This document shows positions 31,701-37,700 of a stretch of DNA of 64,000 nucleotides, piece by piece (within the stretch, counting starts at the first letter, position 1; every line of letters starts with the position of its first letter). The DNA is taken from the NCBI RefSeq assembly GCF_017348835.2, contig NZ_CP071375.1, one strand, 5' to 3'. The position numbers are program-made. The DNA is from Escherichia coli (GTDB taxonomy: Bacteria; Pseudomonadota; Gammaproteobacteria; Enterobacterales; Enterobacteriaceae).

Positions 31701-34700
31701 TTTAACATCATAAATTTGCAGCAGTTTCTCCAGCATTGCCTGTGCGGCATTCCCGGTGCTGTATGAATCGGTTACTGATATATTTTCCTGCATAGATTTA
31801 ACCGGCCATCTGAGATGGCCGACAGGTTAACATAATTACAGCCATTTAGGGCCACGCGCTTAGCCCGCGGGTGAAAACGCATCTATCACCTTGTGATCGA
31901 CACCTTCATTCTCCCCCGCCAGTTCGGCACTGAGCTTCGCCATAAACTCGACTAAAAATTGCGCGTTGTGCTGCGCCAGCTGCTTGCCTCTTGCGGTTTG
32001 CATGGTTTGCGGTAGCTTCAGCAACTTAGTCTGGAAATGATCCAGCGCGTAGCGTTTATCATCAAGCGGGCGATGCTGTGCGAACGGATCTTCACCATCA
32101 AACAGCGCCACGCCCAATGCCCCTGAAACGGCAAACACGCGCGCCAGGCCAATCGCCCCCAGGGCTTCCAGCCGATCCGCATCCTGGACGATTTTAGCTT
32201 CCGTTGTTAAGGGGGCGATTTGCGCGCTGAAACTGTGAGCGGCAATGGCATGACAAACGGCCTCAATTTTCTCCGCCGGAAATTGCACGAACTCTTCACG
32301 GAGCAGGCGACGCGTCTCTTCTGCCGCCAGGATTGAAGAACGCTGCCGTTGCGGATGATTTTTCGCCAGGCTCACAATATCGTGGAAATAACAGGCGGTT
32401 AAAATCACCAGCATATCGACGTCATCATCTGCCGCCAGCTTCTGTGCCGTAGCCCAGACGCGGCGAAAATGACACAAGTCATGGGCCGCGTCCTGGTGCT
32501 GATGATGGTTTTTCAACCAGTTTTCGAACTGTGCCTGCCAGTGTTGTAAGTCCATACGCGCTCCGTTGCCAAAGAGTCGCCACCTTAGCAGTTTTTATTC
32601 ATAGCGTCTGCTACGTGCGGGACGAGGTCGGGTGTACCAGGCAATGCTGCCTAACAATGCCCCGACCAGAGCCATAAATAAAAATCCGACCAGTGCCCCT
32701 AACCACTTTCCCGCGGTAGAGCCTAAATCGCTTTCAAATCCCGACACGGGGGCATCGGGGATCCGGCTCATCACCCAGATGTAACGCGCCATTGCCCAGA
32801 CGAAATAGCCACACCATGTATAGAAAGCCCACAAAGCCAGTTTGCCGCCAGGGCTGCGAGAGAGTCTCTCTTCCATCTTTGTCGAACCGTATTCCATTTT
32901 GAGATAACCCGGAAAATTCAGACTTAGTACTATTATGTGATAAAAGTCACATTTTTCCACATTGAATGAGCCAGTCAAGACTCAATCATTTTTTGAACAA
33001 ATAGATAAATTTTGCGCAACGGCAGTGAATACAGGAAAAATCGTTTTGAGCGATTTTATTTATCTTTGATATCGGCTTTATTAATTCATTCAATCAATAT
33101 ATTAGCACTGATTACAATTATACCTTTTTATTATTCTGTGTCATGATGCTTCCGTTATTAGCCTTTTATCGTCTTGTTTATATTTTTTGGGCCGGCATGA
33201 TGCCGGCTTTTTTTTATGCCTTCATTAATGTGCGCGTGATCACACCAGCCGTTTAGCGCAACAATCATTGATACCCCCTATCTTTCCGCTCAACTCATAA
33301 CATATTGATATGCATTTATAATTTTCATGAATATTTATATTTAGAATTCATAATTCTGAATTATATTAAATAGATTGGAAACATTTTGAAATCTTTTAAA
33401 TATATTTGTTACATGTAATCTTTAAAATAAAATGAACTTCATAGAATAGTATCCAAATGTGCTTTTTTTTTGGATAACGGCACTTATTGATATATTCATG
33501 AAGATTATAATCACAAGGGAATACATAATGAAAAGAAAAGTTCTGGCAATGCTGGTCCCGGCGTTATTAGTTGCTGGCGCAGCAAATGCGGCTGAAGTCT
33601 ATAATAAAGATGGTAATAAACTGGATTTCTACGGAAAAGTAGCAGGTCTGCACTACTTCTCTGACAACTCGGGCGCTGATGGCGATATGTCATATGCCCG
33701 TATCGGTTTCAAAGGCGAAACACAAATCGCTGACCAGTTCACTGGTTACGGTCAGTGGGAATACAACCTGCAAGCAAATGGCACAGAAGGCGATGGAGAT
33801 AACTCTGCTACCCGTCTGGCATTCGCAGGTTTAGGTTTTGGTCAGAATGGTACTTTCGATTATGGTCGTAACTACGGTGTCGTATATGACATCGAAGCAT
33901 GGACCGATATGCTGCCAGAATTTGGTGGCGATACCTACGCGGGTGCCGACAACTTCATGAACGGTCGTACCAACGGTGTTGCAACCTACCGTAACAATGG
34001 CTTCTTTGGTCAGGTTGATGGCTTGAACTTTGCTTTGCAATATCAGGGTAATAATGAAAGTGGTGGACCATTCGGGCAGGAAGGTTCCGGTAGTGGTGAT
34101 GGCCGTAGCCTTTCCAAGGAAAATGGTGATGGTTTCGGTATGTCAACATCCTACGACTTCGACTTCGGTTTAAGTCTGGGTGCTGCATATTCAAACTCTG
34201 ATCGTTCAGATCGTCAGGTTGGAGTTGGTTTAAATGATCGTAACCATAGCAACAGAAATGCTGGTGGTGAAACCGCTGAAGCATGGACTGTTGGTGCAAA
34301 ATATGATGCTAATAATGTGTATTTAGCAGCTATGTACGCTGAAACTCGCAATATGACCCCATATGGTGGTGGCGAGTTTGATAATGGTGAATCAAGATCA
34401 GCCATCGCTAACAAAACCCAAAACTTTGAAGTTGTTGCTCAGTATCAGTTCGACTTTGGCCTGCGCCCGTCCATCGCTTACCTGCAATCTAAAGGTAAGG
34501 ATTTAGGCGGTTGGGCTCATGACGGTAATGGCGATCCGCATTACACCAACAAAGATCTGGTTAAATATGTTGATATTGGTATGACCTACTACTTCAACAA
34601 AAACATGTCCACCTACGTTGATTACAAAATCAACCTGCTGGACAACGACGACGACTTCTACAAAGAAAACGGCATCGCTACCGATGATATCGTAGCTGTG

Positions 34701-37700
34701 GGCTTAGTCTACCAGTTCTAATCAGCCAACGCGCCGCGGCGTGTTACTGTAAAACTTAACAATAGCCTGAGTTCGTCCCTCATCGAACTCAGGCTTTTTT
34801 TATTGGCATTTCATCTCCATCTCCGGCACACGCAATTGTCAATGCATATCGATACAGCACCTTACCCTGCCCCTGCTGGCACAATATCTTCTACCAGCTA
34901 CTCTTCCAGCCAACACTCCAAATACATTTCTTTATGAATTAATCCGCAACAAACACGCTTCCCATATAGAAATATTTGCAAAAATAGTGCATGAAATATG
35001 CTTTTTCTCTACCAATCCGGGATATAAATATTCATCAGCACCACAATATTCCACATCACTAAATCTCTCCCCGCCGCCCCGTACCTCTGATAATGGTCTA
35101 AAATCATTGAGGCCACTTGCGACGACGTTGCTCAATAAGGAAAATTTGGCGTGAATAATATTCAACACCAGTGCAGCATCATCATTACATACTTACACCC
35201 GCCGACTACCGCTTTCGATATATTGACTCAATTTTCCAGCCTGGTTAAAAATAGCGACCAGCTCAGTCGCACATATAGTGACTACCCTAACTAAGCAACA
35301 ATAAGGAATACACTATGACTGTTCAAACAAGTAAAAATCCGCAGGTCGATATTGCTGAAGATAATGCGTTCTTCCCTTCAGAATATTCGCTTAGCCAATA
35401 TACCAGTCCTGTCTCTGATCTTGATGGCGTGGACTATCCAAAACCGTATCGCGGTAAACATAAAATTCTGGTGATCGCCGCGGACGAACGTTATTTGCCG
35501 ACCGATAACGGAAAACTGTTCTCGACCGGTAACCATCCGATTGAAACGTTGCTGCCGTTGTATCATCTCCATGCTGCAGGTTTCGAATTCGAAGTGGCGA
35601 CCATTTCCGGTCTGATGACCAAGTTTGAATACTGGGCTATGCCGCACAAAGATGAAAAAGTAATGCCATTCTTTGAGCAGCATAAATCGTTGTTCCGCAA
35701 TCCGAAGAAACTCGCGGATGTTGTCGCCAGCCTCAACGCTGATAGCGAATATGCAGCAATCTTTGTTCCTGGTGGTCATGGCGCACTTATTGGTTTACCT
35801 GAAAGCCAGGACGTAGCTGCCGCTTTACAGTGGGCAATCAAAAATGACCGTTTTGTTATCTCCCTTTGCCACGGCCCGGCGGCTTTTCTGGCGCTTCGCC
35901 ACGGCGATAATCCACTGAATGGTTATTCCATTTGCGCATTCCCAGACGCCGCAGACAAACAAACGCCAGAGATAGGCTATATGCCGGGTCATCTCACCTG
36001 GTACTTCGGCGAAGAGCTGAAGAAAATGGGCATGAACATTATTAATGACGACATCACCGGGCGAGTACATAAGGACCGTAAAGTTCTCACCGGCGACAGT
36101 CCTTTCGCAGCGAATGCGTTGGGTAAACTGGCGGCGCAGGAAATGCTGGCAGCTTACGCGGGTTAATCCCTGTTACGTTTTAATGTAAGCGCATAATCAA
36201 TCGCAGCCGCGTTAGTACTCACGACGTGGCTGCGTTTTTTCACGGTTAATTTATGGCGTACTGAAGCCCTATGTTAATTTCTTTGCGGCAATGTAATCCG
36301 GAACACATTATGCTTATTGAGATAGTGATACGTAGCACTTCCCCCATGTAATTCGGCAATCGCTTTGACTAAAGAAAGGCCAAGTCCCTGACCTACGGAA
36401 TGACGCGAATTATCTCCCCGCCAAAATCTACGGAAGAGTTTTTCAGGCTCATGAATTTTCGTTCCAGGACTGGCGACATCAATATTAATATAGCCGTTAG
36501 TATCAAGAAAACTGGTTATCTGAATACGCGATTTTTCTGGTGAATATCGAATGGCATTAACAATAAGATTCGATAACATTCGTTGCAGTAAAATTTTATC
36601 CGCAAAGATTTGCTGATTGCACTCGACCTTAAAGCAAATCTCTTTCTCGTCTGAAAGGTATTCAAGATAATCCAACAAATTTTCGACTTCCTTATTGAGA
36701 GAAAGCGAGTCCAGTTTCACCAAAACATTGTTTTTATCTGCCCGGGCAAGAAACAGTATGTTCTCTGTTAACCGAGAAATATTTTCCAGCTCTTCAATGT
36801 TACCGGCAATTGTTTTTTGATATTCAGCGATACTTCTGGTTTGACTGAGCGTAACCTGATTCTGACCCAGTAATGCATTAATGGGCGTTCTAAGTTCATG
36901 AGCGAGATCGTCAGCAAATTGACTTAGGCGTTCAAAATCTTTGACTAAGGCTTGATGCATTTTATTCAACGCCTTCCCAAGAGGTTTTAGTTCTCTCGGT
37001 AATGCGCTAACCTCAACAGGCTCTCGGCTATCGTTATAATTCAGCGCTTCCGTTACACCACTCAACTTTTTGATCTCTCGTAATCCCGTTCTGATTAACA
37101 GCGGACTTAATACTGAGCAAAGTACAATGGCGACAATGCAAATTATAATGCTATTAATTTTATACTGTTCAAGCATGTTTTGTCTGGCTGAAGCCAATTT
37201 AGCCACAGTAACCGTTAATGATGGCGAAACTTCATCAATATTAATTCGTAAAGCATCAATTTCTGTGTCATTAATAATGCTTCTGTAAATGCCAGCTGCG
37301 CTGATTGTCTCACTAGCAGGTATGTTATTTAACATGCCATCACTGACATTTGTCCGGTTAACAATTTTATTGATGCTATCACCATGAATGATCAAGATAT
37401 CCTGACTAACATCCATCATCCGGTTAAAGTACACAGGTAACGTATCTGGATTTACCCCATCAATTAACAACTGCTTGATCTGTGCTGTCCGGTTAATGAG
37501 TGTTGTATCATCGCGCCATTTCAACTCACTTGCCAGGCCATTATAGAGAGTCCAGACAATTCCAGCACCAGCAACAGACAGTAGCAATATAAAAAGCAAG
37601 GTTAAACGGACGGTTATAGACAATCTTTTCATTATTTTTTTACCGCTACGAACGAATATCCCATCCCACGGATTGTGGCAATTAGCTTTTCAGGAAAAGG

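Follow-up and report, generated by a model that had tools for sequence, protein, structure and literature searches.

Known relatives of the porin gene treated here are the classical porins OmpC, OmpF, and PhoE, together with OmpN and, in Klebsiella pneumoniae, OmpK37, the latter two being minor "quiescent" porins that are weakly expressed under laboratory conditions. Small RNA genes adjoin some of these porin genes, micC lying next to ompN and, as also seen in this analysis, micF next to ompC. The Salmonella porins OmpS1 and OmpS2 are quiescent as well: H-NS/StpA keep them silent, and LeuO and OmpR act as their activators (PMC4264507). YedS itself has been described as functional in a clinical isolate and linked to carbapenem susceptibility, as cited in later papers (Warner et al. 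2013, Antimicrob Agents Chemother 57:1935), and yedS (b4496) is annotated as a pseudogene in K-12 MG1655.

The window, i.e., the whole stretch of 64,000 nucleotides analyzed here (contig NZ_CP071375.1, assembly GCF_017348835.2), originates from a pig-associated Escherichia coli strain. On its plus strand, yedS occupies positions 33528-34721, with the ATG at 33528 and a TAA ending at 34721, and encodes a general-diffusion porin of 397 aa. Its divergent upstream neighbor is drpB (formerly yedR; 32595-32897, minus strand) and its downstream neighbor is hchA (35315-36166, plus strand), placing it at the same locus and in the same gene order as the disrupted K-12 copy. Translation yielded an uninterrupted ORF of 397 codons free of internal stops. 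A Shine-Dalgarno-like AAGGGA read from the sequence (33515-33520, plus strand) positions its GGG 8 nt before the start codon, and the same arrangement of (A/G)AGGG plus 8 nt was also found in the leaders of K-12 ompF and ompC. The first 21 codons (33528-33590) encode a Sec signal peptide with cleavage before AEVYNK, residue 22 being the point where the mature chains of solved porins begin to align. Downstream of the gene, an intrinsic terminator (34764-34802, plus strand) is formed by a 12-bp stem with seven GC pairs and an 8-nt loop (34764-34795) and a T-run. A longer mechanical ORF of 420 aa starting from GTG 33459 was rejected in favor of ATG 33528, because all homologues begin with MKRKVL and the ribosome binding site precedes this ATG. 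The original prediction of a full-length porin with signal peptide, ribosome binding site, and strong terminator between yedR and hchA was thus borne out by a stop-free re-translation and by the location of all its parts.

The deduced protein matches PF00267 (Porin_1) with 478.6 bits against a cutoff of 23.7, its residues 27-397 covering profile positions 1-337. From residue 22 to 397, it aligns with the full chains of 6v78, 6rd3, 2j1n, 1pho, and 2omf-type structures (E values of 1e-146 to 1e-97), meaning that OmpK37, OmpK36, OmpC, OmpF, and PhoE are all matched end to end, with OmpK37 (6v78) as the top solved-structure match (489 bits, full length). Judged by this end-to-end homology, mature YedS (376 residues) is predicted to adopt the 16-stranded trimeric-porin barrel fold. 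All constriction residues are conserved, with K16, R37, R75, R126, D106, and E110 aligning to OmpF K16, R42, R82, R132, D113, and E117; the loop 3 motif PEFGGD is present and the C-terminus reads VGLVYQF, comprising the YQF beta-signal with the terminal Phe. YedS shares these constriction residues and the L3 motif with OmpN/OmpK37 (PDB 6V78), but differs in chromosomal locus and carries insertions of approximately 7-9 residues in three segments, presumed to be L5-L7, compared with OmpK37. With OmpC, OmpF, and PhoE it has in common the Pfam family, the fold as seen from full-length alignment, the layout of the ribosome binding site, and a near-identical signal peptide, whereas its locus is another one and its loops are longer.

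A comparison with the K-12 paralogues gave 71% identity to OmpN and 66% to OmpC, with OmpC, OmpF, and PhoE together ranging from 62 to 66%. OmpN and OmpK37 are thus nearer to YedS than OmpC is, so that the earlier assignment to the OmpC family holds in the sense of an OmpC/OmpF-family porin, but not with OmpC as the closest relative. The protein is identical to RefSeq WP_053884514.1, which is labeled "porin OmpC", because YedS, with 542.8 bits, passes the cutoff of 484 of the NCBIfam OmpC model NF007841, a subfamily model and not an equivalog. The equivalog cutoffs for OmpF (465.2 vs. 583) and PhoE (444.2 vs. 599) in NCBIfam were not reached.

Alignment with the K-12 yedS pseudogene and re-translation revealed exactly two lesions in K-12, neither of which is found in the window, substantiating the view that the K-12 counterpart is disrupted. 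Codon 162 (34011-34013) is CAG (Gln) in the window and TAG (amber) in K-12, owing to C instead of T at position 34011, while the T at 34190 in codon 221 is missing in K-12, a 1-bp deletion causing a frameshift. The wild strain W12-1 carries the K-12-type allele without either lesion, and these lesions are the sole differences between the two. The loss of yedS in K-12 is recent and came about through a nonsense mutation plus a 1-bp deletion. Over the coding sequence, the window gene shares 94.3% nucleotide identity with the K-12 pseudogene, and its product 95.5% amino-acid identity with the intact W12-1 allele. Two mosaic blocks, 33580-33979 and 34480-34779, account for most of the differences from K-12, the divergence amounting to 12.8% over 33580-33979 vs. 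0.6% over 33980-34479.

The region upstream of yedS had been described as unusually long, approximately 550 bp, and AT-rich. Its AT-richness stands, yet the yedS ATG lies 630 bp from the start of drpB as annotated in K-12, or 651 bp from its PGAP start, and a value of approximately 550 bp results only from a mechanical TTG start at 32978. Moreover, the interval is neither empty nor a single promoter, since it holds the Hfq-binding small RNA gene rseX (33125-33214, plus strand) with its own terminator hairpin (33189-33209), which explains much of the apparent length and leaves a spacer of 313 bp (33215-33527) before yedS. The rseX gene matches Rfam RF01401 over the full length of the model (97.7 bits vs. 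a gathering score of 50, E 1.5e-13), is placed identically in the K-12 annotation, and is 94.5-100% conserved across all E. coli allele classes. A RyhB match at 33157-33215 (23.1 bits vs. a gathering score of 55, E 0.33) was rejected, as it represents the rseX terminator hairpin. The vicinity of a small RNA gene to a porin gene resembles the micF-ompC and micC-ompN pairs; unlike in those pairs, rseX lies upstream of yedS in the same orientation and is not divergent. RseX is an Hfq-dependent repressor of outer-membrane proteins other than the adjacent porin, acting on ompA and ompC (PMC8313858).

The spacer, with 27.5% GC compared with 50.4% in the whole window, presumably houses the promoter and regulatory region of yedS along with its 5' UTR, and is a likely target of H-NS. 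In K-12 without H-NS, "RseX and surrounding areas" were found to rise, while native rseX expression is undetectable in the wild type (PMC8313858). A CRP-type site, TAATGTGCGCGTGATCACACC, is located in the spacer at 33226-33246, with one mismatch to the K-12 site; a Footprint-seq preprint attributes to yedS an in-vitro CRP site at K-12 position 2033766 (PMC12871828). A second one, TATGTGATAAAAGTCACATTT, given for (yedR) in the same preprint (PMC12871828), is matched exactly at 32934-32954, within the intergenic region toward drpB. Upon sigma-E induction, "yedS (ompS1)" was down 2.5-fold alongside other porins (PMC2731931); this table label and the AT-rich upstream region constitute the likeness of yedS to Salmonella OmpS1/OmpS2, and a scan with an rseX-core pattern found no Salmonella genome. 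The candidate OmpR site ACATTTTGAAA (33381-33391, plus strand) is an 11-mer that matches the core of the ompC OmpR box C1 exactly, within an upstream region otherwise unrelated to that of ompC. Because 131 of 2000 shuffles (~6.5%) have some 11-mer in common with the ompC upstream region, it is kept as a lead only. Promoter-like hexamers occur at 33340-33367 and 33406-33433; since a sigma-70 scan upstream of yedS returned 9 sites vs. 7.8 +/- 2.5 in shuffled sequence, i.e., not above chance, no yedS promoter is claimed. MicF is said to regulate yedS in the work of Warner et al.; an RNAduplex prediction restricted to -60 to +30 gave a dG of -11.1 (z +0.72) for MicF and yedS, compared with -27.4 (z -3.99) for the ompF control; it lends no support to such regulation, extended complementarity of the MicF 5' end to the initiation region being absent there. 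Prediction of an RseX-yedS duplex showed no signal above shuffles, a test of little power because the RseX-ompC control was likewise not significant.

Extension of the comparison to other genomes showed the exact window protein on 102 contigs and full-length homologues in the thousands. The sampled E. coli alleles are mostly intact, and intact orthologues exist in E. albertii, E. whittamii, two cryptic Escherichia lineages, and one genome of Citrobacter amalonaticus; the gene order dcm-yedJ-drpB-rseX-porin is kept with the orthologues in other Escherichia and C. amalonaticus. Among the sampled genomes, intact alleles are the norm across Escherichia. Against its orthologues, yedS shows a dN/dS of 0.08-0.23, with dS reaching about 1-2, from which we conclude that the gene is maintained by selection. 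Purifying selection together with intactness across the genus identifies the intact gene as the ancestral state. The allele classes occupying the slot range from 352 to 397 aa and are only 59-72% identical to one another, but have in common an identical signal peptide, which also recurs in other species, a conserved rseX/upstream region, and a conserved 3' flank. Their length variation falls in segments gapped against solved porins, presumed to be extracellular loops. Of more interest than the intact gene itself is the side observation that one slot harbors allele classes as divergent as separate porin paralogues and that these have undergone repeated inactivation.

Taken together, the window gene is very probably functional, its product YedS being an alternative porin of the classical type. 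As a trimer, the protein would provide water-filled channels through which small hydrophilic solutes, beta-lactams and carbapenems among them, could pass, and its extracellular loops L4-L7 are predicted to be longer than in OmpC or OmpK37. It is probably poorly expressed under standard conditions, "quiescent" like OmpN, OmpK37, OmpS1, and OmpS2, a proposal we make because the 27.5% GC upstream region and the adjacent rseX would be silenced by H-NS/StpA. CRP, and possibly OmpR, may act at the yedS promoter, and the regulatory logic of OmpS1/OmpS2 may serve as a model by analogy.

A rather unlikely alternative emphasis is that selection at the locus acts mainly on the surface-exposed face of the porin, with interchangeable porin "cassettes" being exchanged or discarded as phages, colicins, or host immunity exert pressure; the 397-aa long-loop allele of the window would be one such variant. 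The divergent allele classes within an identical signal peptide and conserved flanks, the mosaic divergence from K-12, the length differences in presumed extracellular loops, and the frequent loss are all consistent with it; selection on the surface would, however, be weak if yedS is silenced, and the use of YedS by phages, colicins, or antibodies is hypothetical. This emphasis complements the diffusion-pore explanation rather than excluding it. With low confidence we further put forward that rseX-yedS may constitute a conserved, H-NS-silenced "porin replacement module", in which a fixed regulatory front end drives an exchangeable porin body. The front end would comprise the drpB-side CRP site, rseX, the AT-rich spacer, and the invariant signal peptide, and the body would be represented by at least five allele classes that recombination reshuffles and that are inactivated again and again. 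Upon derepression, RseX would lower OmpC and OmpA, and the strain-specific YedS variant would replace them.

Independent inactivation of yedS was found in K-12, in O157:H7 and strain 112, in PE164, and in AF10, and apparently also in WR3-3 and F11, the routes of loss in several lineages being nonsense mutation, frameshift, IS3, and IS1. In PE164, an IS3-family element is inserted at 33902-33904 (plus strand; 3 bp common to both junctions) in a gene otherwise 100% identical to that of the window. Given these repeated independent events, the locus is dispensable, and they could suggest, together with the undetectable native expression of the neighboring rseX in wild-type K-12 (PMC8313858), that yedS is a decaying relic in E. 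coli whose ORF is open here by chance, a lesion not yet having been acquired. We consider this improbable in view of the low dN/dS at such synonymous divergence, the orthologues remaining intact in Escherichia species and C. amalonaticus with all functional residues conserved, and the predominance of intact alleles among the E. coli sampled. A second copy of OmpC with the role and regulation of the major osmoporin, as implied by the RefSeq entry "ompC: porin OmpC", by the NF007841 score (542.8 vs. 484), by PGAP calling the gene ompC in many genomes, and by the nearly identical signal peptide, is highly improbable and was rejected on locus (drpB-hchA instead of micF-ompC(-rcsD)) and identity (66% to K-12 OmpC vs. 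71% to OmpN, with OmpK37 as best solved relative), the upstream region also being unrelated to that of ompC save for the one 11-mer.

The finding as such is already known: the K-12 pseudogene is part of the reference annotation, intact alleles are widespread and deposited, and a functional YedS was published in 2013, the clinical-isolate gene being intact like that of the window according to papers citing that work (Warner et al. 2013). Wild E. coli commonly possess an intact yedS, and the present case is not unusual. In strains losing OmpC and OmpF, YedS may represent an extra entry route for carbapenems and cephalosporins, and its intactness therefore matters for resistance prediction from genome sequence. 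At present, the RefSeq label "porin OmpC" hides the yedS identity and yields genomes with two "ompC" genes. In strains like that of the window, the rseX-yedS pair and its proposed silencing by H-NS can be studied with a working porin, which K-12 does not offer, and given the extreme diversity of its alleles and its recurrent loss, the slot merits a population-genomic study. If the module proposal is true, permeability and the surface shown to phages and host would both change, a behavior that could never show in K-12, a yedS pseudogene strain.

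The interval between drpB and hchA carries an uninterrupted porin gene, yedS, which by translation reads from an ATG at 33528 to a TAA at 34721 on the plus strand (397 codons). The original prediction had described a full-length OmpC-family porin with a signal peptide, its own ribosome-binding site and a strong terminator, and all of these elements were recovered. Re-translation revealed no internal frameshift or stop. A Shine-Dalgarno-like AAGGGA is located at 33515-33520 (plus strand) with its GGG 8 nt before the ATG, an arrangement shared with K-12 ompF and ompC, and a GC-rich hairpin of 12 bp followed by a T-run forms the terminator (34764-34802, plus strand). 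The predicted position between yedR, meanwhile renamed drpB, and hchA held as well, with drpB upstream on the minus strand, hchA downstream, and, farther out, dcm and yedJ flanking one side and hprS the opposite one. A 420-aa reading from a GTG at 33459 was rejected as a mechanical artefact, since the homologues all start with MKRKVL. Among other E. coli strains, F2_81 (pig rectal swab, Australia) matches the window at 99.976% identity over 32.9 kb, and PE164 (pig, China) at 100% on either side of an IS3 insertion; identity to K-12 amounts to 97.85% within the 10-kb neighbourhood of yedS. The window is accordingly assigned to this pig-associated E. coli lineage.

In profile searches, the product matched Pfam Porin_1 with 478.6 bits and the NCBIfam OmpC subfamily model with 542.8 bits (cutoff 484), and stayed under the equivalog cutoffs of the NCBIfam OmpF and PhoE models. 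Over its whole length, mature YedS (residues 22-397) can be aligned with solved classical trimeric porins, Klebsiella OmpK37 (6v78) being the best match (489 bits), followed by OmpK36 (about 450 bits), E. coli OmpC (419 bits) and OmpF and PhoE (about 387 bits). Identity to the K-12 paralogues amounts to 71% for OmpN, 66% for OmpC and 62% for OmpF. Cleavage of the signal peptide falls before AEVYNK, the constriction residues K16, R37, R75 and R126 opposite D106 and E110 are kept together with the loop-3 motif PEFGGD, and the protein ends in YQF. With 376 residues, mature YedS is unusually long owing to insertions of about 7-9 residues relative to OmpK37 at three places in its C-terminal half, which presumably correspond to surface loops. 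On the annotation side, PGAP assigns the name "ompC / porin OmpC" to the long yedS alleles, among them the pseudogene copy in K-12 derivatives, since these score above the cutoff of the OmpC subfamily HMM. Genomes of this kind thus have two ompC genes by name; for the short alleles the label is just "porin".

The suggested disruption of the K-12 counterpart was borne out. In MG1655, yedS (b4496) is annotated as a pseudogene, and for this sequence in a K-12 derivative the PGAP record reads "frameshifted; internal stop". Alignment and translation located a nonsense change at codon 162, where CAG became TAG (window 34011), and a frameshift at codon 221, where one T is missing (window 34190) and beyond which the remainder reads on in another frame. 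In the cattle strain W12-1, the K-12-type allele is intact and differs from K-12 solely at these two positions, so the lesions are recent and restricted to the K-12 lineage. The divergence between the window and K-12 is a mosaic, with 12.8% in 33580-33979 and 0.6% in 33980-34479.

Orthologous loci were retrieved by a scan for the conserved core of rseX, an sRNA gene between drpB and yedS, using one genome per species. This yielded E. albertii, E. whittamii, two cryptic Escherichia lineages, one more E. coli and Citrobacter amalonaticus. Each of the six loci contains an open porin reading frame (366-397 aa) whose signal peptide is the same. The order dcm-yedJ-drpB-rseX-porin-hchA is found as far as the available DNA extends, with rseX, porin and hchA alone visible in E. 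coli E69; the flank of the C. amalonaticus porin locus yielded no match to hchA. For the window gene against its orthologues, dN/dS ranges from 0.08 to 0.23 at dS values of 0.2 to about 2. The protein is exactly RefSeq WP_053884514.1, present on 102 contigs and belonging to a 90% cluster of 522 members, and E. coli and Shigella have thousands of full-length relatives, of which one occurs on at least 1000 contigs. Selection maintains yedS, and its intact form is ancestral.

Within complete E. coli genomes, the drpB-hchA slot hosts alleles of 352, 357, 371, 387 and 397 aa. Comparison of window 33590-34707 with loci from other genomes (L009-L016, L023, L024) defined at least five porin allele classes with only 59-72% identity between them, which are as divergent mutually as OmpC, OmpF and OmpN. 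The shorter classes carry VEWGGD in place of the loop-3 PEFGGD. The signal peptide is identical in all classes, rseX is 94.5-100% identical among them, and the 3' flank is homologous in every class (about 85-97% identity; 95-97% in three 352-aa alleles). Besides K-12, the locus is frameshifted in O157:H7 F1273 and strain 112, together with drpB. PE164 carries IS3 at window 33902-33904 in an otherwise 100% identical gene, AF10 is likewise interrupted by IS3, and IS1 elements lie under the yedS match in WR3-3 and F11. Inactivation is common and independent between lineages, and the overall pattern suggests recombinational exchange combined with repeated loss, with phages, colicins or immunity as a possible driving force.

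The original prediction also noted a long (~550 bp) AT-rich region upstream of the gene. The 313-bp spacer between rseX and yedS has 27.5% GC compared with 50.4% for the window; the drpB-yedS interval as a whole measures 630 bp and, containing rseX, is not a single promoter. This Hfq-binding sRNA gene lies at 33125-33214 on the same strand as yedS (Rfam 97.7 bits, gathering score 50), has its own terminator (33189-33209, plus strand) and is placed at the same position by the K-12 annotation. Throughout Escherichia it is conserved beside the porin gene, and C. amalonaticus has a recognisable core of it. A promoter scan upstream of yedS revealed no enrichment of promoter-like hexamers. A candidate OmpR site at 33381-33391 is an 11-mer identical to ompC OmpR box C1, with ~6.5% of shuffles sharing some 11-mer. 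MicF is reportedly a regulator of YedS (Warner et al. 2013); its pairing with positions -60 to +30 of yedS was not above chance (z +0.72; ompF control z -3.99). Two palindromic CRP-type sites match reported K-12 sites: one on the yedS side (33226-33246, one mismatch to K-12), 12 nt downstream of the rseX terminator, and one adjoining the drpB start (32934-32954). A 2026 K-12 Footprint-seq preprint assigned an in-vitro CRP site to yedS, and its second site was matched as well (PMC12871828). In K-12, rseX "and surrounding areas" are under H-NS silencing with StpA as backup (PMC8313858), and in a table on sigma-E induction "yedS (ompS1)" is 2.5-fold down alongside ompN, ompC, ompF and phoE (PMC2731931). 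Salmonella ompS1 and ompS2 are silenced by H-NS/StpA and activated by LeuO and OmpR (PMC4264507). From the AT-rich spacer, the CRP site, the silencing of the rseX area and the sigma-E table, we infer that yedS may behave as a quiescent porin modelled on ompS1/ompS2.

Elsewhere in the window, an NleB-family type III effector gene (45900-47946) is split by an IS5-family element into a C-terminal (45900-46493) and an N-terminal half (47431-47946), the transposase reading frame spanning 46437-47405; in the near-identical F2_81, nleB2 is intact without the ~1 kb insertion. By correspondence with F2_81 (L004, 30196-33353), a degraded prophage or effector island covers ~43700-46900 downstream of yodB, comprising nleF, a frameshifted nleH, an nleC fragment and nleB2 according to the F2_81 annotation, which suggests an attaching-and-effacing (EPEC/STEC-like) background.

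Overall, the earlier observation is confirmed and its interpretation supported: YedS looks functional and belongs, as an ordinary representative, to a well-known family. Functional YedS outside K-12 has reportedly been described in a clinical isolate (Warner et al. 2013). The yedS-yedR intergenic region has even served as a marker of host source (PMC11267920). That yedS can be intact outside K-12 is therefore already known. With both the K-12 pseudogene status and the functionality of the locus elsewhere on record, the sole route to novelty is the rseX-yedS module and its putative behaviour as an allelic cassette.
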